DNA of 64,000 nt from Mustelus asterias (Eukaryota): NCBI RefSeq assembly GCF_964213995.1, contig NW_027590122.1, forward strand, positions 1,798,001 to 1,862,000, in the 5' to 3' direction. Within the stretch, counting starts at the first letter, position 1, and each line of letters starts with the position of its first letter. Position numbers and translations under genes: made by a program. Shown here in pieces: positions 16,740-64,000 of the stretch. The notes beneath the pieces are model-generated. The model saw only the letters and a program-made list of their open reading frames with translations. It searched no databases and was not told where the DNA came from.

Positions 16740-17440
16740 GCGAAATGAGGACATTTCAGTCTGTCTGAAGCTTGATTGATGTGGAGATGCCGGCGTTGGA
16801 CTGGGGTAAACACAGTAAGATGTTTAACAACACCAGGTTAAAGTCCAACAGGTTTATTAATAAACCTGTTGGACTTTAACCTGGTGTTGTTAAACTTCTT
16901 ACTGAAGCTTGATTGGCATTGTCACCAAGCCCGGGCTCTGATTGGCTGGAGGTCTCGACGGCTTCCGGTCTTCCAGCGCTGCCGATTGGCCAGAGCCATC
17001 AAACTTCGGCTCGAGGAAGTGCAGGGGGCGGGAAACAATCCCAATTATGTCACTGCAGAGGAGAGTGATTCTAATTGGCTGAATCAGACTAACACCCATT
17101 GTGGACGTCACAATGACTCAGAGGGGCGTTCCCAGCACTCAGCGTCCCATCGGCAGCAAAAGCACTGCGGATTGGACAACAGCTCCGAACCTCCAGAGGT
17201 CAAACTGCCCCCGGCCCCCACGTGGCGTCATTTCGGCCCCTTGTTGTGATTGGGCCCGGGTTGACCAATGGAAAGAGATGGCGTACCGGAAATGGGAATT
17301 ATCCTGCAACCAATCACAGCGCAGTGTTTGTGCTCATGGCCGCACTCAGCTTTCCCCATTGTCTGAATGCGGAGCTCGTCAAGCTGCTCATTCCGGCCCA
17401 GCCAAGCGGCTGCTGCTCTCTTTGAATGGAGATTGAGCTG
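16740..17440. promoter_or_regulatory. Bidirectional CpG-rich promoter between the minus ZNF gene (15.2-15.8 kb) and the plus ZNF gene (19.4-20.5 kb)
   Basis: Multiple CCAAT/ATTGG boxes, GC box, GACGTCAC and CACGTG. Homologous exon-1/intron junctions point outward (~16730 minus; GTGAGT at 17872 plus). Confidence 0.65.
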
Positions 17441-17459
17441 CACACAGACTCAGATTTCC

Positions 17460-17793
17460 CATTTACCGGTCCAGGCTGCGGGCGATCGAGGGGGCCGTCC
17501 ATCCTGACTGTCTGCCCCTCTACCGCGGCTACGTTCGCGGCCAGGTGTCCCTGGAGAGGGAGCATGCGGTGTCCACAGGCGAGGTTGACGCTTTCCGCGC
17601 CCGCTGGGCACCGCAGGGGTTGGGGTGCATTATCGACCCTAATAATCACATTTTAATTTGATGTTTTTAAGTTTCCTTTGTACTTTGACTTCTGTTCGGG
17701 CTGTTCCCCCTCCTTTTTGGGGAGCTGCCCCTTTTACTTTGTCCTGATTTAATCTGAGTTTGTTTACTTGGTTTGGTTTGACCTAAAAAGAGG
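17460..17793 (+). mobile_element. 5'-truncated Tx1-clade L1 copy with a 16-bp TSD
   Basis: Translates IYRSRLRAIEGAVHPDCLPLYRGYVRGQVSLEREHAVSTGEVDAFRARWAPQGLGCIIDPNNHILI* (Tx1 ORF2 C-terminus-like), then a 3' UTR and A-rich end. Perfect ACAGACTCAGATTTCC at 17444-17459 and 17794-17809. Confidence 0.85.
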
Positions 17794-18106
17794 ACAGACT
17801 CAGATTTCCACTTGTCTCCTGCATCTGCATCCTGGACACAGTTAAACAGTCCTTAAAAGAGGCCAACATCTGTGAGTAAAACACTTTCCTTTCCCCCCTT
17901 TCCATTTCTTTTCTCATTCTGGGGGAAATTGGGGACTTGCAGCAACTGAAGGGAAAGGAAGTGAATCCAGGGAGGCCACCCAGATCTCTCTCTGTTAAGA
18001 ACATCCTTTGCTCCCTCAGCTTGACATTTATTTAAAAGTGAACTACTGCAGATGCTGGAATCTGAAACAAAAACAGAAGATGCTGGAAAATCTCAGCAGA
18101 TTTGAC

Positions 18107-19444: not shown

Positions 19445-20482
19445 ATGGAAGGAAAAAGCACCATTCACACCAGGGAGAAACCATGGAAATGTAGGGACTG
19501 TGGGAAGGGATTCAGACGCCCGTGCGAGCTGGAAATCCATCGACGCAGACACACCGGGGAGAGGCCGTTTACTTGCTCTATGTGTGGGAAGGGATTCACT
19601 CAGTTAATTTGCCTTCAGAGACACCAGAGACTCCACACTGAGGAGAGGCCATTCATCTGCCCCATGTGTGGGAAAGGATTCACTCTCTCATCCCACCTGC
19701 TGAAACATCAGCAAGTTCACACTGACAAGAGAAAGTTTAAATGCTCCGACTGTGAGAAGAGCTTTAAAAACCCACATGGACTGAGGGAGCACCAGCGCAT
19801 TCACACCGGGGACACACCGTTCAACTGCTCACAGTGTGGGAAGAGGTTCAGGACATCACCCCACCTTCAGATACACCAACGAGTTCATACTGGTGAGAGA
19901 CCTTTTAAATGTCCAGAGTGTGGGAAGTGCTTCAAAGGTTCTGGAGATCTTCAATACCATCAACGTGTTCACACTGATGAGAGACCGTTCAGATGCTCTC
20001 ACTGCGGAACTGGGTTCAGACGATTATTTGAACTCACTGTACATCAGCGCACTCACACTGGGGAGAGGCCGTTCATCTGCCCCCAGTGTGGGAAGGGATT
20101 CACTCAGTCCTCCAACCTGCTGACACACCAGCAGATTCACACTGAGAAGAGACCATTCATCTGCTCTGAATGTGGAAAGGGATTTGCGCGACCATCCAAT
20201 CTGCTGACACACCAGCGAGTTCACACTGGGGAGAGACCATTCACCTGCTCCGAGTGTGGGAAGGGATTTATTCGATCATCCAATCTGCTGATACACCAGC
20301 GAGTTCACACCAATGAGAGACCCTTCTCCTGCTCTGAGTGTGGGAAGGGATTTATTAATTCATCTACCCTGCAGGCACACCAGCGAATTCACACCGGGGA
20401 GAAGCCCTTCACATGCTCCACATGTGGAAAGTGTTTTAATCGATCATACAACCTGCTGGTGCACCAGCGAGTTCATAAATGA
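19445..20482 (+). CDS. C2H2 zinc-finger protein, 12 fingers
   Basis: ORF 19364..20482; likely start MEGKST at 19445; 12 CX2CX12HX3H units with TGERP-type linkers. Confidence 0.9.
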
Positions 20483-55224: not shown

Positions 55225-56682
55225 TCAGTCAGAGCATTTAAAGGGTCTCTCCTTGGTGTGAGTAACATTGTGTCTCAGCAAGCTGGATGACTGAGTGAAT
55301 CCCTTCCCACACACAGAGCAGGGGAATGGTTTCTCCCCAGTGTGAACTCGCTGGTGTATCCACAGTGTGGATGACCTTTTAAATCTCTTTGTGCAGTGAG
55401 AACAGCTGAACGGTCTCTCCTCAGTGTGAACTCGCTGGTGAATCAACAGTTCTTGAGAGCTTTCAAAACCAGTCCCACAGTCAGTGCATTGAAAGGGTCT
55501 CTCCTGGGTGTGAGTGCTTTTGTGCTTCAGCAGGCTGGACAACTGAGTGAATCCTTTCCCACACACACAGCAGGGGAATGGTTTCTCCCCAGTGTGAACT
55601 CGCTGGTGTTTCCGCAGATTGGATGAACTTTTAAATCTCTTTGTGCAGTGAGAGCAGCTGAAGGGTCTCTCCTCAGTGTGAATGCGCTGGTGAATCATCA
55701 GATCCGCAGCACTTTTGAAGCCACGCCCACAGTCAGAGCATTTAAAAGGTCTCTCATTGCTGTGAGTGACTTTGTGTGTTGTCAGACCAGATGACTGAGT
55801 GAATCCCTTCCCACACACAGAGCAAGTGAATGGCCTCTTCCCAGTGTGAACTCGCTGGTGTACCCGCAGATTGGATGAGGTTTTGAACCTCTTTGTGCAG
55901 TGAGAGCAGCTGAACGGTCTCTCCTCGGTGTGAATGCGCTGGTGGATATTCAGATCCGCAGCACTTTTGAAGCCACTCCCACAGTCAGAGCATTTAAAGG
56001 GTCTCTCATTGCTGTGAGTGACTTTGTGATTCTGTAAGTGGGATGACTGAGTGAATCCCTTCCCACACACAGAGCAGGTGAATGGCCTCTCCCCAGTATG
56101 AACTCGCTGGTGTGTCTGCAGGTGGGATGACCGATTGAATCCCTTCCCACACACAGAGCAGGTGAACAGTCCCTCTGCAGTGTGAAAGCGTTTGTGGGAC
56201 ATCAGTTCACCAGAGCTTTTGAAGCCTCTCCCACAGTCAGAGCATTTAAAGGGTCTCTCCTGGGTGTGGGTGACTTTGTGTTTCAGCAGGCTGGATAATT
56301 GAGTGAATCCCTTCCCACACACACAGCAGGTGAACAGTCTCTCCCCGGTGTGAACTCGCTGGTGTTGCCGCAGGTTGGATGATGTTCTGAATGTCTTTGT
56401 GCAGTGAGAGCAGCTGAACGGTCTCTCCTCAGTGTGAATGCGCTCGTGCTCTCTCAGATCCGCAGCACGTTTGAAGCCGCTTCCACAGTCAGAGCATTTA
56501 AAGGGTCTCTCATTGCTGTGAGTGACTTTGTGTCTGAGCAGGTGGGATAACTGAATGTATCCCTTCCCACACACAGAGCAGGTGAATGGCCTCTCCCCGG
56601 TGTGACTGCGTCGATGGATTTCCAGGTCACAGGGGGCTCTGTATCTCTTCCCACAGTCCCCACATTTCCACCGTTTCTCCAT
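55225..56682 (-). CDS. C2H2 zinc-finger protein, 17 fingers, stop within the 18th
   Basis: ORF 55225..56718; likely start MEKRWKC; decayed fingers continue to ~54880; acceptor at ~57041, donor at ~57724. Confidence 0.9.
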   Translation of the reverse strand: MEKRWKCGDCGKRYRAPCDLEIHRRSHTGERPFTCSVCGKGYIQLSHLLRHKVTHSNERPFKCSDCGSGFKRAADLREHERIHTEERPFSCSHCTKTFRTSSNLRQHQRVHTGERLFTCCVCGKGFTQLSSLLKHKVTHTQERPFKCSDCGRGFKSSGELMSHKRFHTAEGLFTCSVCGKGFNRSSHLQTHQRVHTGERPFTCSVCGKGFTQSSHLQNHKVTHSNERPFKCSDCGSGFKSAADLNIHQRIHTEERPFSCSHCTKRFKTSSNLRVHQRVHTGKRPFTCSVCGKGFTQSSGLTTHKVTHSNERPFKCSDCGRGFKSAADLMIHQRIHTEERPFSCSHCTKRFKSSSNLRKHQRVHTGEKPFPCCVCGKGFTQLSSLLKHKSTHTQERPFQCTDCGTGFESSQELLIHQRVHTEERPFSCSHCTKRFKRSSTLWIHQRVHTGEKPFPCSVCGKGFTQSSSLLRHNVTHTKERPFKCSD

Positions 56683-57267
56683 GGTGCAGGTGTCCTTGTG
56701 ACTCTCCCGGTTAAACAATCAGTTAAATCTCACACAGAACTTGGGTACAGTCTCTCCCCGCTGTGAATGCTGCTATGTATTTTCAGGCTGTGTAACTGGT
56801 TAAAGCTCTTTCCACACTCAGTGCACTGGAACACTGTCCCTCGGGAGTATCTGTATCTTGCTGCTTTTCCAGTCACATTGATATTAAAGACCTGTTTTCG
56901 CAGACAGAACAGAGAAACATTTCTCCTTCCAGATTCAAAGTCTGATAATATTCAGGTCCGATGAATTGAGTGAGGGTGTCAGATGCTGATGTGATGTTTG
57001 TTTCAAGATTTTGGTCTGTTAATCCTCACCTTCTCATATCCTGTAAAAATTCATCAATGTCAGCACAGGATAGAAATTCAGAACAGACAATTCTAGTTTC
57101 TATGGAACATTCTTTCCTCTCTCATTCCCCAAAAGCTGTAAATCTCCATCCCACACACTCTCCCTCCATTCTCACTCTGCTGTATCTAATATTCACCCTC
57201 CCAGTTCTCCTGAAGGTGCTGATTGAGGCTGATTGACAGATCCATGCTCACTGCTTCCTGTCCTGGA

Positions 57268-57528
57268 TAGTCATGATAGACAATACACATCTTTTTAGCC
57301 TGTCTTGATGCTCTCTCCACTCACATTGTTTCGTTTCTTAAAGACTTGATTAGTTGTAAGTATTTGCATTCCTACCATTATTCATGTAAATTGAGTCTGT
57401 GTCTTTATAAGCTCTGTTTGTGAACAGAATTCCCACTCACCTGAAGAAGGGGCTAAGAGCTCCGAAAGCTTGTGTGGCTTTTGCTACCAAATAAACCTGT
57501 TGGACTTTAACCTGGTGTTGTTAAACTT
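57268..57528 (+). mobile_element. Penelope-derived insert with a hammerhead motif (57438-57474)
   Basis: CAC-CTGAAGA-A-GGGGC-TAAGA-GCTCC-GAAA-GC-TT-GTG; flanked by TCCTG(T/C)CCTGGA. Confidence 0.7.
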
Positions 57529-57724
57529 ATCCTGCCCTGGACACAGAGAGCTGGAAATCTCCATGCAGGCTGCCAGACAGATCTATGTCTATCTGACTGG
57601 ACTAACAATGGGTGGAATATACAGACTGGATTCACTTCCTTTCCCTTCAGTTGCTGCAAGTCCCCAATTTCCCCCAGAATGAGAAAAGAAATGGAAAGGG
57701 GAGAAAAGAAAGTGTTTTACTCAC

Positions 57725-58165
57725 AGATGTTGGCGACAGGAGGAAGTTTCCACTCCCCCAAGGTCAGGGGGTGGGATCTCCGCCGCGCGGACCCGGGAGC
57801 CCCGCCCCCACCCATAGTTCCCCTCCCCCTGCACCTCCTCGAGCCAAGGTTTCCAGGCAACCCGCTGGCGGCTCCGGACAGAGCGAGAAGCTGCTCGGTG
57901 ATCTCCCCCTCCCCCCGGCCCCTGACTGCGCATGTCCAAGGGAGAGGGGAAGCTGCGCATGTGCGGTGGAGTGCCCACCCCCTGACCTGTCTGCTGAGGT
58001 GTTGACCAATGGGGGAGTTGGAGGACCTGAAGGACTCTGGTCCTCCAGCCAATCAGAGCTCCCCCATTGTCTGAATGCGGAAGTTGCACAATGAGCTTGT
58101 TCAGCTGCTCATTCCTGCCCGGCAAAGCTGCTGCTTCTCTCTCTGAGTGTAGATTGAGCTTCAGA
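57725..58165. promoter_or_regulatory. Bidirectional ZNF promoter
   Basis: GC box, ACTGCGCATG, TGCGCATGTGCG and CCAAT boxes; the right part is homologous to 17260-17459. Confidence 0.65.
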
Positions 58166-58289
58166 CGGCCTGAGACGTGCCTCCTCTCGGACAACACCCA
58201 GTTTTGTTTCCGGGGTGAGGTGGATTCGTGTTCGCCCGTGTAGCGGAGGGCCCCGGGTCGGAACCGGGCGGAAACTTTGGGAGGGAGGT

Positions 58290-58680
58290 GAGCTGCTGCC
58301 TGTTGCCTGGCCTGCCTGTCGCCTGACCTGCCTGCCTGTCGCCTGGCCTGCCTGCCTGTTGCCTGGCCTGCCGCCTGGCCTGCCTGCCTGTCGCCTGGCC
58401 TGCCTGCCGCCTGGCCTGCTTACCTGCCTGCCTGCCTGCCGTCTGGCCTGCTTACCTGCCTGCCTGCCGTCTGGCCTGCTTACCTGCCTGCCTGCCGTCT
58501 GGCCTGCTTACCTGCCTGCCTGCCGTCTGACCTGCTTACCTGCCTGCCTGCCGTCTGGCCTGCTTACCTGCCTGCCGTCTGGCCTGCTTACCTACCTGCC
58601 TGCCTGCCGTCTGGACTGCCTGCCTGCCTGCCGTCTGGGCTGTCTGCCGTCTGGACTGCCTGCTTGCCTGCCATCCGGCC
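58290..58680 (+). repeat. (CCTG)n-based compound repeat in the Tx1 5' UTR
   Basis: Reiterated GCCTGCTTACCTGCCTGCCGTCTG units. Confidence 0.9.
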
Positions 58681-59065
58681 TCTGGGGGGTGCGCTCTCCC
58701 CGGGGGGGGGGGGGGGAGGAAGAGAGGACAGGGAGTGACTGGAGGAGAGGGGGGGGGCGAAGGCGTTTGGACTGTCTCTTTTCCATCTGCAGTGGGGGGG
58801 GTGAAGACCTTTCCTATTTCCCCTACCCACTACTGCTGCCCCCGGGACCGGCACCCCCTCCCCTTTTCCCTCCTGACTGGGGCATCGGCCTTGTGCCTCA
58901 TCTCCCTCCTGCTCCTCCAACCTCCTCTCTCCCTCTCTCGCTCCGGGGAGAGAGCACCTACACCCTTCCCCGCCTACCCCACCCTGCCTTATCTTCCCCA
59001 TCCCACATACGCCCTGCCGTGCATCTGGGCAGTCTCGGGGTGGGCGTAGCACTTCCCCTGATACC

Positions 59066-61169
59066 ATGGCGACATCACCAGCGTCGCCGGTGGCAGGGCC
59101 TTCTCGGCCCACCTATGCGGGCGTGGCGGCTGCCAGAGCCCCCGCCGCTCCCAAGGCCCTGCCGCCATTCTCTTTAATCACGCGGCAGCTCGGGGTGAAG
59201 TGCTACGCCCACCCCGACATGTCTATCGAGGCCTGCGTTAAGGCAATGGCTGGGGTTGTCGGCCCCTCAGCCATTGTCGCGGCCTCAAAGATGTACGGCC
59301 GGGCCGTATTCTTCCTGAAGGCCGAGCGGGCGGTTCGCCTCGCCCTGGAAAAGGGGCTCACGGTGGGCGGGACGTTCCTGGCGGTGGACCCTTTGGAGGC
59401 CACCGCCCACAAGATAGTAATATCAAACGTCCCGCCCTTCCTACCGAGTGAGCTCCTCCTCCCCCACCTCCATCTACTGGGGGAGGTCAGGTCCGGGGTG
59501 CAGCCGATCCCGCTCGGCCTTCGGGACCCCTCCCTCCGCCATATTTACTCCTTCCGGCGCCAGGTTTTTGTCCGCCTGGCCCGGGAGGAGGAACTGGAGG
59601 GAGGTTTCAATGTCCCCCACGAGGGGACCACGTACCGGGTCTTTTGGTCCGCGGACGGTGTGCGGTGCCATGCCTGTAAGGAGGCGGGGCACGTGAGGAA
59701 AAACTGCCCCGTCTCCAAGGCCGCCGACCACCAACCCAAGGTGGCCGCAGCTGGCACCACAGCCCCCTCTCCCCCCAAGCGAGTACCATCTGCCCCCCCG
59801 CGAGGGGAGGCCACGCCGGCAGCAGCTGCCACCTCAGCTGCCGGCGGGGGGGGAGCGGAGCCCCCGCGCGGCCAAAAGGCCCATAAGGGACCTACAAAAA
59901 AGAAGGGGGGTACCGGAACCCCGGCCCCCAGGGAAAACACCCCAACCACCCCGGCAGCCGGCTCGGGGACCGCCTCAGTCTCCACCTGCGCCCCCCCCCC
60001 CACCACCACCACCACCACCATCTGCCGGGCCCGTGGGCTCTCCGGGGCCTAGTGCTGGGTCCGGCGCCCGGGATCATGGGCCCGAGCATGGGGGGGCAAG
60101 CGACCCCGAGCCGGCAAAACTGGCGACGCCGCCACCTCGGGGGGAAGTGACGGGAGAGCAGGGGGGGCGCGGCAAGGCGAAGAGGGGCGGAGGGCGAGGG
60201 GCCTCGCCTGCCCGAGGGCAGGTTAACAAAAAGAGGCGGGGCCCCACGGGCACCGTAGAGTTCGAGGTCTGCGTGTCCCCCCCCCCTTGTGAGTCATCTC
60301 CTGCCGTGCCCCCACCTGTCTTTGTGCCTTGTCCCGCGAAAAAAGGGGGCAAGGCACCCTGTAAATCCAAGCATGTGTTGCCTCAGTCCCCCGGCGAGGA
60401 GTCTCCGGGGCCGGGTGGCAGCGGGACCCCCACGGTTCCGTTCCACCCGGCCGGTTACAACCCGGAGTTCTTCTTCAGTCTGTCGGGGGACTGGGGCGAC
60501 ACTCCAATGTTCATGTCCTCGTGCGGCGGCGGCGAAGAGACGATCCACTCGTCCTCTCCGTCCCGACCTTGGACGCTGGACATCCCCAACCTCAGTCCGA
60601 AGGATACACCGGACCTGGGGGGTGTCCAAGCGTCTGGGGCGGGGGGGGGGGCTGGGCCGCCGTCGCACGGGGGCCCGCAATCCGGGAAAGGTGAGCCCGG
60701 GGGGAACCCCTCCTCCACCGATCCTGGGGGTGGGATCGGGGAGGGGCTAGGGCTAGTTGGTGGCTCCGTGCCGCCCGCCGTACGTCCTGCGGCGGGGGAC
60801 TCGGAGTCGAGGGGCGACCGCCCTGAGGAGGTCAGCGGCTCGGTGGAGGGCACGGGGACACTTTCAGAGTCTGCCCAGAGCGAGGCGGGGGACTCCCTCG
60901 TGCCCCCCACCGAGTCGTCCCTCATCCCCTCCAAGGACCTCAGGGTCTTTATCCGTAACCATTCCGGTCGCTCCGACATAATCCGGCTAGCCCTCGGCCA
61001 CTGGCCGGACCTGGCGCAGCTCGTCCGGTCCGTGAAGGCATGCTCGCATGCCTCCGCGGGCCTGGAGAAAATAGAGCGGCGCTGGGTACTGCGGTTCCTC
61101 CACAGGCTCGAAAAGGTGGGGGGTGGACTGGTGAGAATTGCGCCAGCGCCCCCCCACACACCTAGTTAA
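59066..61169 (+). CDS. Tx1 ORF1 (gag-like), split into two frames (59066..60052 and 60033..61169)
   Basis: RPTYAGVAA, VGPSAIVAASKM, ISNVPPFLP, SFRRQVF and CHACKEAGHVRKNC; frameshift in the C/G-run region near 59.8-60.05 kb. Confidence 0.8.
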
Positions 61170-61197: not shown

Positions 61198-64000
61198 ATG
61201 AAGGTGACCATAGCCAGCCTCAACATCAACGGCAGCAGTGGGCCACACCGCAGGTTCCAGAACTTCTCGGTCCTCCGTGACGGGAAGTATGCGGTGTGTT
61301 TCCTGCAGGAAACCCACACCGTTCCGGGAGACGAAGCCCAATGGCTCCTGGAGTGGCGAGGGGGGGTCTACATGAGCCACCTCACGCTCGCTTCTTGCGG
61401 GGTGGCTATCTTGTTGGCCCCGCGTTATAAGCCGGAGATCTTGGGGGTCAAGGAGCCGGTGCCAGGCCGGTTGCTGCACTTGACGGTCCGTGAGGGGGGC
61501 GTGGTCATTCACTTGCTGAATGTCTACGCCCCGACCGCTGGACCGCAGCAAACGACTTTCTACGAGAAAGTGTCCGCTCACATCGACACCATCGCGGGGG
61601 GCGAATGCATTATCCTCGGGGGAGATTTCAACTGCATCCTCGAGGCACGGGACCGCACCGGCCCCTGGCTGCGCACTCCGGCGGTGGTGAAGTTGCGGGA
61701 CCTGATCGGGTCCCACGACTTGGTGGACGTCTGGAGACATCTCCATCCTGGCTCCAGCGCCTTCACTTTCGTGAGGCCTGGAGTCGGAGCGTCCAGGCTC
61801 GACCGCCTTTACATTTCGAAGGCGCACGTGTCCGGCGTGTCCTCGGTCTCCATGCGGCCGGTGTCGAGCACGGACCACAGCCTGGTGTGGGCGGACTTTG
61901 CGCCGTCTCGCATCCGGCGGGGGTCCGCGTACTGGCACTTTAACAACACGCTGCTGGAGGACGAGCGCTTCCTGGACTCGTTCCGTCGATTCTGGGCCGG
62001 CTGGAGAAGGAAGCGGGGAGGCTTCCCCTCCTTGAGGCTCTGGTGGGATGTGGGCAAGACTCACGCCCGTACCTTCTGTCAGGGGTACGCGAGGGGGTCG
62101 ACAAAGAGGCGGAAATCCAGGCTCGAGGAGTTGGAGAAGGAGGTGCTCGACCTGGAGGCACGTCTCAGTCGGCCTGACGCGGACCCGGCCCTGCGTTCGG
62201 AGTACAGGGAGAAGAAGGACGCGCTGCGAGACCTGCAACTTGCCAGGTCTCGCGGCGCGTACGTGAGGTCGCGGCTCCAGTTCCAGGTGGACCTGGACCG
62301 CGGCTCCCCCTTCTTCTACTCGCTGGAAAGAGGGCGGGCTAACCGTCAGCAGCTCCTTACGCTGCTGGCCGACGACGGTTCCCCCGTCTCGGATCCGGAG
62401 GGCATCCGGGCCATTGCCCGGGAGTATTACACCTCGCTCTTCTCTCCGGATCCGTCCAGCGAGGATGCCCGCAGACTTCTGTGGGAGGACCTGCCGCAGG
62501 TCGGCCCGGAGGGCGTCGGCAGGCTCGAGGCCCCTACCACCATGGCCGAGCTGACCGGCGCCCTAAATGGCCTCAGCCGGGGCAAGGCCCCTGGGCTGGA
62601 CGGGCTGACAGTAGAGTTCTTCAGGGCGTTCTGGGACGTCCTGGGGAGCGACTACGCGGGGGTCCTGGGGGAGAGCGTCGCTACCGGGGAGATGCCCCTT
62701 TCGTGGCGCAGGGCCGTCATTGCCCTGCTGCCCAAGAAGGGGGATCTCCACCTGCTCAAGAACTGGCGCCCGGTCTCCCTCCTCAGCACGGATTATAAAA
62801 TCTTTGCCAGGGCTATGGCTTCACGCCTTGGATCCGTGCTGGACCACTTGATCCACCCTGACCAGTCCTACACGGTCCCGGGCCGTTGCATACATGACAA
62901 TCTCCACCTGGTCCGGGACCTAATCCATCACACCCAGAGGGCTGGTCTGTCGGGCGCCTTCCTGTCATTAGATCAGGAGAAGGCGTTCGACAGGGTGGAG
63001 CACGAGTATTTACTCGGGACTCTGCGGGCATTCGGGTTCGGGACGCATTTTGTCGCCCGGATCCGATTACTGTACTCTGCCGCAGAGTGTCTGATTAAGG
63101 TTAACGGGTCCCTGACGGCGCCCCTTCGCTTCGGGAGAGGAGTACGGCAGGGCTGCCCCTTGTCCGGCCAACTGTATTCCGTATGCGTGGAGCCATTCCT
63201 GCGCCTCTTGCGGAGGAGGTTGTCAGGTTTGGTCCTGCGCGGACCGGACGTAGGGGTGGTCCTGTCAGCTTACGCCGACGACGTGCTCCTCATGTTCACG
63301 GACCCGGCTGACCTGCGGAGGATGCGAGAATGCCAGGCGGTGTACTCCGCCGCGTCCTCCGCCAGGATCAACTGGGCCAAGTGCTCCGGACTCCTTGTCG
63401 GTCCTTGGGAGACGGACCCCCTTCCGGAGGAGCTCAGGCCTTTCACCTGGAGCAGGACCGACCTCCTCTACTTGGGGGCCCATCTCTGCCCAGCCGAGGA
63501 ATCCTGGCCGGCGAACTGGCGGGAGCTGGAGGCCAAAGTCTCCGCCCGCCTGGGTCGCTGGACAGGACTGCTCCGAGTGCTGTCCTACGGGGCGCGAGCT
63601 CGCGTCATAAACCAGCTGGTCGCCTCCATGCTGTGGTACCGGCTGGTCCCTTTGACCCCTCCCCCTGGCTTTGTCACCGATATCCAGAGAACCCTCGTGC
63701 GGTTCTTCTGGGGCAATCGACTGCACTGGGTCCCTGCTGCGGTCCTGTATCTCCCGCTTGAGGAGGGCGGACAAGGTCTGGTGTGCCTCCGCACTCAGAT
63801 AGCGACCTTCCGCCTCCAGGCCCTGCAGAGGTACCTTTACGTTGAGCCCCCTCCACAGTGGTGTGCCATGGCGACGTATTTCTTCCGCCAGTGGCACGGC
63901 CTCAATTATGACGTGCAGCTCCTGCATATCGAACTGGGGCGTGCTTCGACCGCCCTGCAGGAGTTGCCCGTCTTTTACCAGGACCTCCTCACTGTCTGGA
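61198..64000 (+). CDS. Tx1 ORF2 (AP endonuclease + reverse transcriptase), partial
   Basis: MKVTIASLNING, LQETH, NVYAP, LGGDFN, SRLDRLY, TDH, KAPGLDG, NWRPVSLL, DQEKAFD, QGCPLS (63148) and YADD (63271). QGCPLS and YADD are in frame with the ATG; no stop was noticed before the window end. Confidence 0.95.
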   Translation, partial: MKVTIASLNINGSSGPHRRFQNFSVLRDGKYAVCFLQETHTVPGDEAQWLLEWRGGVYMSHLTLASCGVAILLAPRYKPEILGVKEPVPGRLLHLTVREGGVVIHLLNVYAPTAGPQQTTFYEKVSAHIDTIAGGECIILGGDFNCILEARDRTGPWLRTPAVVKLRDLIGSHDLVDVWRHLHPGSSAFTFVRPGVGASRLDRLYISKAHVSGVSSVSMRPVSSTDHSLVWADFAPSRIRRGSAYWHFNNTLLEDERFLDSFRRFWAGWRRKRGGFPSLRLWWDVGKTHARTFCQGYARGSTKRRKSRLEELEKEVLDLEARLSRPDADPALRSEYREKKDALRDLQLARSRGAYVRSRLQFQVDLDRGSPFFYSLERGRANRQQLLTLLADDGSPVSDPEGIRAIAREYYTSLFSPDPSSEDARRLLWEDLPQVGPEGVGRLEAPTTMAELTGALNGLSRGKAPGLDGLTVEFFRAFWDVLGSDYAGVLGESVATGEMPLSWRRAVIALLPKKGDLHLLKNWRPVSLLSTDYKIFARAMASRLGSVLDHLIHPDQSYTVPGRCIHDNLHLVRDLIHHTQRAGLSGAFLSLDQEKAFDRVEHEYLLGTLRAFGFGTHFVARIRLLYSAAECLIKVNGSLTAPLRFGRGVRQGCPLSGQLYSVCVEPFLRLLRRRLSGLVLRGPDVGVVLSAYADDVLLMFTDPADLRRMRECQAVYSAASSARINWAKCSGLLVGPWETDPLPEELRPFTWSRTDLLYLGAHLCPAEESWPANWRELEAKVSARLGRWTGLLRVLSYGARARVINQLVASMLWYRLVPLTPPPGFVTDIQRTLVRFFWGNRLHWVPAAVLYLPLEEGGQGLVCLRTQIATFRLQALQRYLYVEPPPQWCAMATYFFRQWHGLNYDVQLLHIELGRASTALQELPVFYQDLLTVW

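Follow-up and report, generated by a model that had tools for sequence, protein, structure and literature searches.

Probable recurrent targeting of zinc-finger gene first exons by a Tx1-clade LINE in Mustelus asterias

One question raised by a zinc-finger (ZNF) gene cluster of Mustelus asterias is whether a retrotransposon of the Tx1 kind repeatedly selects the first exon of these genes as its target. The window analysed here, a stretch of 64,000 nucleotides (NW_027590122.1, positions 1,798,001 to 1,862,000) from a genome of 3.68 Gb, is a cluster of C2H2-ZNF genes with one coding exon each. Two Tx1-like insertions, at 17.4 kb and 58 kb, lie in it, both in sense orientation relative to exon 1. 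The initial annotation proposed that both had entered one site in that exon. The evidence assembled below makes recurrent targeting of the ZNF first exon by this family highly probable; the single common site has to be given up, as in exon register the short insert is placed 27 bp further downstream than the long element. Coordinates are window positions on the forward strand unless stated otherwise, and numbers above 64,000 continue the same count beyond the window.

The short insert proved to be as first described: a 5'-truncated copy of 334 bp (17460..17793), comprising the final 66 residues of ORF2 and a 3' UTR without poly(A), between perfect 16-bp target-site duplications at 17444..17459 and 17794..17809, the only two exact matches of this 16-mer within the window. 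The 5' duplication defines site 3. The gene assignment likewise stands, with GT of the predicted GTGAGT donor at 17872 and a coding exon for 12 C2H2 fingers, read from its ORF and domains, at 19445..20482. Comparison with duplicates identifies 17417..17443 as an empty site 1 plus the first 27 bp downstream in exon 1 of this paralog; duplicates L012, L197 and L203 carry a Tx1 3' end at the position that is empty here (17417). Further on, a 12-bp tip of an older Tx1 insertion (17851..17862) abuts the 14-bp target of site 2 (17863..17877), within which the donor falls, a tip/target junction seen in 109 genomic copies. The short-insert event itself is present genome-wide as six duplicated copies of one insertion. 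Elsewhere in the window, 8943-9011 holds a copy of the end of this exon 1, without promoter and with the same old Tx1 tip, ahead of the ZNF gene at 9.8 kb, and a ZNF gene region is duplicated in inverted orientation at 96% identity (9114-10827 versus 55569-57271).

The long element consists of two head-to-tail Tx1 units of 7,079-7,080 bp (58140-65218 and 65219-72297), 99.7% identical. Its start had been put at ~58181, directly after a stretch homologous to the short insert's target; the unit begins at 58140, and the supposed flank is the head of the element, the first 45 bases of which recur at the internal tandem junction (65220-65264). The first 27 nt of the head (58140..58166) reproduce almost exactly the target downstream of site 1, and differ from the host copy at 72298. 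There follow, in order, a diverged but collinear copy of the remaining host exon 1, from site 1+27 to site 2, in the 5' UTR (58167..58204); a decayed tRNA-Val-derived segment (58205..58277); a short-period repeat, noted on reading the 5' UTR sequence (58294..58680); ORF1 with a CCHC knuckle (59066..61169), frameshifted in both units, in this copy after ~328 codons; and ORF2, 1,297 aa with endonuclease and reverse transcriptase by domain search (61198..64000, on to 65091 beyond the window). An Rfam scan of 57700-59200, by sequence only and without folding, gave no ribozyme match above gathering score.

Extension past the window settled several predictions. The 3' end of the first unit (window-equivalent 64890-65218) is 95.8% identical to the short insert, so that the two are one family and not unrelated ones; beyond 72297, host exon 1 resumes at 72298, with a predicted donor at 72357 and ZNF fingers at 74.4-75.8 kb, as expected. 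The expected target duplication after the long element is absent, and the two insertions thus do not share a duplication pattern. That they are independent events is borne out by their different subfamilies, junction bases (TCT versus purine-CA) and positions. Upstream of the long element, 57740..58139 is a putative bidirectional host promoter, with a CAAT-box-like motif at ~58049, an ETS-like motif at ~58077 and, on the minus strand near 57720, the predicted donor of a divergent exon 1; promoter activity is a prediction from these sequence features. Over 250 bp the region shares 97% identity with the flank upstream of the site in an empty paralog (L377). The promoters carrying the two inserts are paralogous (74.6% identity over 114 bp), as the initial annotation had held together with the common orientation.

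The family is a Tx1-clade LINE. ORF2 contains PF03372 (residues 6-227) and PF00078 (512-760), matches L1 endonuclease structures at E 1e-18, and shares 48.6% identity with the Xenopus TX1 149-kDa protein; the closest reverse transcriptase homolog is a ray protein (78%). In a tree of 22 chosen homologs, midpoint-rooted and without an L1 outgroup, the reverse transcriptase falls into a 9-row clade with Xenopus Tx1 at support 99/99. ORF1 lies upstream of ORF2 and shows its CCHC motif in translation; it had no match in Pfam. Among 19 full-length units ORF2 is open in 16, and ORF1 (695-705 aa) in 11. The element has no poly(A) tail. A protein in turtle that joins KRAB-ZNF and Tx1 reverse transcriptase (P0020) was considered as a sign of common targeting and rejected; its Tx1 part follows the fingers, and it is probably an annotation join.

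Exact 3' tips of the family number 1,671 genome-wide. Recent copies divide by two 3'-UTR patterns into subfamily A (n=350), that of the short insert, and subfamily B (n=214), the youngest and that of the long element; older copies stand at 91-94% identity. In a tree of 3' ends, site-1 copies and off-target copies with TCT junctions form one shallow group, separate from the older site-2 group, and the short insert is placed with dispersed purine-CA copies; this tree has little resolution within subfamilies, and copies below 335 bp give artefact rows at its base.

The exon under attack is ~70 bp long and common to the ZNF family. Its donor motif has 897 matches genome-wide, indicating a family of ~900 genes; the first 100 matches listed are all in clusters on contigs C12, C23 and C71, and the exon is found clustered on these and on small contigs rather than dispersed, with diverse ZNF ORFs downstream. 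The Tx1 family occupies three positions in it, all in sense orientation. Site 1, near the exon start, is preceded by 129 B-type tips, ~60% of the raw total of ~214 B ends, the two counts having been made with slightly different search patterns; a narrower pattern, for any subfamily, gives 108 matches. Of 20 filled sites, 16 have a sense ZNF ORF within 7 kb, and not one has fingers in antisense. Site 2 is located at the splice donor, 9 bp before it, and takes most of 109 tips, mainly from older copies. Site 3, 27 bp beyond site 1, has nine matches: six are duplicates of the window event, two are unrelated, and one (L273) is an independent 51-bp insertion in the same register with its own 16-bp duplication. 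Site 3 has therefore been struck independently at least twice. Six duplicated loci (L283-L288) carry a 17-19-bp minisatellite, made from an exon-1 segment, upstream of a 133-bp site-2 insertion.

Raw counts of this kind are raised by duplication, as by a 15-20-unit array on contig C89 and the six copies of the short insert, and truncated copies provide a stricter measure. Four 5'-truncated copies at site 1 (L111/L222, L107, L216 and L211) have different ends, at 153, 180, 217 and 331 bp, and each has its own 14-15-bp duplication; L222 also has an empty twin, L180, with 100% identity over 250 bp on either side. At site 2, at least nine different truncation points lie directly in host exon among 30 loci read. 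Truncated copies with their own duplications at the same base mean that duplication alone cannot account for the insertions. Flanks give a similar picture: grouping 43 site-1 contexts by flank yields 16 clusters at 90% identity, or 10 at 80%, and median identity is 99.4% between elements and 56-67% between flanks. The chance expectation for exon sites is 3.6e-5 (comparable TCT sites number ~7e7, of which ~2,700 are exon sites); enrichment comes to ~1,600-fold on the four proven events and ~5,400-fold on the 16 clusters, with denominators of 65-70 independent events that are our own estimate.

A Tx1 family has been called target-specific when more than 20% of its flanks are of one sequence type (PMC4494074). 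Subfamily B passes this threshold with ~60% of raw flanks and comes to ~20% after collapse to 16 clusters; the whole family (~15% of 1,671) and subfamily A fall below it. Among the 1,671 exact 3' ends, no fewer than about 85% lie away from the three sites. The genome-wide flank test suggested at the outset thus gives a divided result, clearly nonrandom for B (129 of ~214 at site 1) and random for the short insert's own subfamily, with 0 of 50 A copies at ZNF exons on contigs C1-C6. Those 50 come only from contigs that lack a donor cluster among the first 100 donors listed, and the 50 B copies examined for junctions comprise the first 30 by contig order and 20 chosen as off the on-target list; neither sample estimates the on-target share. 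One A locus (L040/L231), without alignment to the reference copy, was left out of length counts.

Away from the exon, junctions are simple. Off-target B copies begin with TCT in 32 of 50 cases, usually with 13-15-bp duplications; they match the exon for 3-4 bases only, and position +5 is T in 14 of 48. Off-target A copies have ACA or GCA in 45 of 50, and a duplication in 8 of 46. At site 1 itself the junction slips in 2-bp steps within a short TC run. The difference in junction class is accompanied by one in the enzyme: Gly114 is present in all eight copies with N-CA junctions that cover the residue, four of which also have Gly113, and in none of the copies with TCT junctions. Residue 113 of the ORF2 endonuclease aligns with Asn118 of L1, which would be the position of Tyr98 in R1Bm, where mutation altered cleavage (PMC1919474). 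The correlation is confounded by descent.

The head of the element carries a further record. A near-exact copy of the 27-nt target opens 30 of 30 heads examined, out of 106; 13 of these stand after a host promoter and 17 after the 3' end of another copy. Three heads (L190, L191 and L197) depart inside the 27 nt from their empty paralogs (window 17.4 kb, L173 and L364) and match other elements, which marks this segment as borne by the element rather than produced by plain duplication. Among the copies examined, full-length ones were found only at these ZNF promoters, and all eight long off-target copies that aligned are 5'-truncated. Alignment with host exons and site-2 copies divides the B head into the 27-nt target copy, near-identical to its target, a decayed remainder of exon 1, and a decayed tRNA-Val; site-2 copies have a tRNA-Val, positive by Rfam and ARAGORN, directly behind the duplicated target. 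The series runs from host through site-2 copies to B. For the window element, the alignment of 58205..58277 to the Rfam- and ARAGORN-positive tRNA-Val at the head of site-2 copy L278 was equalled in 0 of 5000 shuffles, whereas the 36-nt exon-derived piece alone was equalled in 83-567 of 5000, a weak support; searched alone against Rfam, 58205..58277 gave no tRNA match. Since B heads hold decayed exon together with the tRNA-Val still borne by older site-2 copies, the simplest history is an upstream move of the lineage with capture of host exon. The ancestor, headed by the tRNA and resident at site 2, would have been transcribed from a start upstream of it, would later have inserted ~55 bp upstream of that site, and would have kept the intervening exon piece.

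Chimeras of pre-tRNA-Arg with a Tx1 tip, which sit between site-2 duplications, show how a tRNA head can arise. Fusions of pre-tRNA-Arg, tRNA-Val or tRNA-Phe-like pieces to Tx1 tips occur in exon 1 or intron 1 at L173, L192, L363-L399 (11 of 40 sites), L202 and window-equivalent 83.2-83.3 kb, and the tRNA-Arg chimera has been amplified along with its gene. The idea that tRNA pieces are neighbouring genes was discarded; they are element heads or chimeric inserts. In one paralog group (L174, L179 and L033:5628-5736) a 5S rRNA copy (Rfam 63-79 bits) with 5' leader replaces the end of exon 1. At L202 (G000:C89:2431.3-2433.9 kb), an A-type insertion located a few bases beyond site 3 underlies a tandem array of ~20 units of 132 bp, each composed of target and Tx1 tip; for this array an origin as a satellite, by repeated targeting or unequal crossover, is proposed.

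One fossil bears on the RNA. Outside the clusters, L201 (G000:C3:156439.0-156439.5 kb, minus strand) holds, between the two copies of a 10-11-bp duplication, a 200-bp Tx1 3' end, the tandem junction, ~150 bp from the head, and A29. It has the structure of a retroposed, polyadenylated RNA that read through the Tx1 3' end, and as such is the single fossil of read-through, which here enters a tandem head and not the host exon. Its end coincides exactly with a donor-like GT that is conserved in the 5' UTR of the element (window 58288), and it could be a released 5' exon. Bases in duplication pairs that might have been templated by RNA are too few to weigh: one off-target hint (L080) and two on-target pairs (L251 and L253).

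Flanks of filled sites often disagree. A concordant empty partner was found for 0 of 11 informative filled sites versus 36 of 45 empty sites (Fisher p ~1e-6, the sites not being independent); one filled/short pair is concordant in the flank comparison. Discordant flanks occur at L185, L187, L190, L191, L197, L198 and at the window element itself (57.7-58.1 kb versus 72.3 kb), and identity to the wrong paralog upstream extends 1.5 kb. L214 and L218 agree in their upstream DNA and in a truncated copy of 2.6 kb, and the genes downstream differ. Recombination through the elements is the preferred reading; misassembly across 7-kb repeats is the alternative. Flank swapping, with probable gene conversion, weakens dating by identity.

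One way to unite these observations, held with moderate confidence, is that host promoters transcribe the element, its endonuclease is loose, and exon-derived RNA pairs with the target at both ends, giving recurrent sense insertion at three positions in exon 1. The first steps of this account are recorded in the genome: the element has inserted repeatedly and independently at sites 1, 2 and 3, as the truncated copies show; an older lineage headed by tRNA-Val occupied site 2, and the current one occupies site 1, ~55 bp upstream, with the intervening exon now in its 5' UTR. Capture of exon would imply transcripts that begin in or before host exon 1, and it is through this head anatomy that the borrowing of host promoters, raised in the initial annotation, finds indirect support. 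Transcripts would continue past the tail-less 3' end into exon sequence, as the fossil partly attests. The endonuclease would contribute a preference of just 3-4 bases, and exon-1 sites would be favoured through read-through RNA that anneals to the strand once it is nicked, a pairing suggested by analogy with R2 elements. The 27-nt head, for its part, may anneal to the target to complete the 5' end, restoring the target at each end and building tandem arrays; this would explain why full-length copies have been found only at these promoters. A change at endonuclease residues 113-114 may have switched the junction from N-CA to TCT.

The account is weakened by off-target junctions, which show no pairing beyond 3-4 bases, and by read-through known from one fossil. 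For the same reasons a second perspective stays in play, though it is unlikely: the endonuclease or ORF2 reads extended exon-1 sequence, or a promoter-bound factor tethers it, head and read-through being by-products. Three positions in one 70-bp exon, used by subfamilies with different junction bases, suggest regional attraction of this sort, and chimeras of pre-tRNA and Tx1 tip, likewise at site 2, fit it; endonuclease changes track junction class, and the endonuclease of Tx1L alone nicks almost only its own target (PMC1950540). Yet hundreds of off-target copies share a mere 3-4-base consensus, so that the enzyme alone looks loose, and the 27 nt of the head have been kept near the target while the rest of the exon decayed, which points to a use for homology.

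A more deflationary view is that a loose TCT or N-CA preference yielded a few lucky insertions at ZNF promoters, which segmental duplication, gene conversion and recombination then multiplied, only promoter-linked copies being active. The many exact duplicates, the full-length copies with flanks of different paralogs (0 of 11 concordant) and the dispersal of subfamily A speak for it. It is quite improbable, being already largely refuted by truncated copies that differ in length, have their own duplications and sit at the same base in different paralogs (four at site 1, at least nine at site 2, two at site 3), where the chance share of such sites is 3.6e-5. Very improbable is the remaining proposal, that the target belongs to a class already known: a (TC)n tract as for Kibi, or a transposon-derived promoter/exon unit, as for the Tx1 that targets Tx1D. 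Site 1 does lie in a short TC run, with its 2-bp slippage, and several off-target B copies are in TC-rich tracts; microsatellites, however, make up only a minority of off-target B flanks, a TC run is absent from sites 2 and 3, and the exon occurs in clusters (on C12, C23, C71 and small contigs) rather than dispersed and precedes diverse ZNF ORFs.

If the preferred account of transcription, pairing and capture is extended, the LINE might be viewed, tentatively, as a promoter parasite of the ZNF family: without a promoter of its own, aimed in part by RNA flanks, walking along the exon by capture, regenerating its target and serving as a promoter-swapping cassette, it would both escape and reshuffle genes suspected of silencing transposons. 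In fish, C2H2-ZNF clusters have been put forward as candidate silencers of transposons, in a study whose main text does not mention sharks (PMC10547256). Known target-specific LINEs hide in RNA genes, telomeres, microsatellites and other transposons (PMC5035012). Two consequences are of general interest. The genome keeps a stepwise record of a target shift, through tRNA head, exon capture, endonuclease change and new junction, and near-identical natural variants of the endonuclease make target change in a LINE directly testable. The element would also drive the shuffling of ZNF promoters, provided that flank swapping is biological.

With the ZNF first exon, a LINE of a familiar kind gains a target class that is new. 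A literature search, confined to listings of papers and not extending to Repbase or Dfam library entries, returned no report of a LINE targeting ZNF first exons, and protein-coding exons are absent from the Tx1 and LINE target lists in the available portions of PMC4494074, PMC5035012 and PMC3747384. Like Xenopus Tx1 (Tx1L), Keno, Kibi, Koshi and crocodilian Tx1-Mar, the element has two ORFs, an APE endonuclease with reverse transcriptase, and a preference for a multicopy target. Targets described for the clade are transposons, U2, U5 and 5S genes, satellites and microsatellites (PMC4494074); the present family instead enters protein-coding Pol II genes, using three positions in the first exon that these genes have in common, and has many off-target copies. 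Insertion into (TC)n or (TTC)n microsatellites, the mark of Kibi and Koshi, is not the pattern, the flanks showing just the short TC run at site 1. Dewa, a Tx1-clade family, inserts into spacers of tRNA gene arrays; here the tRNA forms part of the insertion itself, following the duplicated target, and is not in the flank.

Small-RNA heads on 3' ends mobilized by Tx1 are known from SINEU and snRNA/LINE chimeras (PMC4494074), and the Tx1 tips that, at site 2 or close to it, are joined to pre-tRNA-Arg, -Val or a tRNA-Phe-like piece resemble them, with the difference that one tRNA head, since decayed, stood on the autonomous LINE itself. The likeness to the rDNA retrotransposons R2 and R1 is of another kind. 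R2 has target-derived 5' sequence, is co-transcribed with its target and anneals through read-through RNA, the last as in R2Ol (PMC6795142); target-derived sequence at the 5' end is found here, and co-transcription and read-through annealing would be the counterparts predicted for this element. R2 encodes a restriction-like endonuclease in its single ORF, enters a Pol I target and carries a 5' ribozyme, and its captured sequence is in the 3' UTR: one fish lineage took up 28S sequence with an apparent shift of insertion boundary (PMC5035012). The ZNF-exon element differs in having two ORFs and an APE-type enzyme, in capturing sequence at its 5' end, and in that the 3' junction itself has moved.
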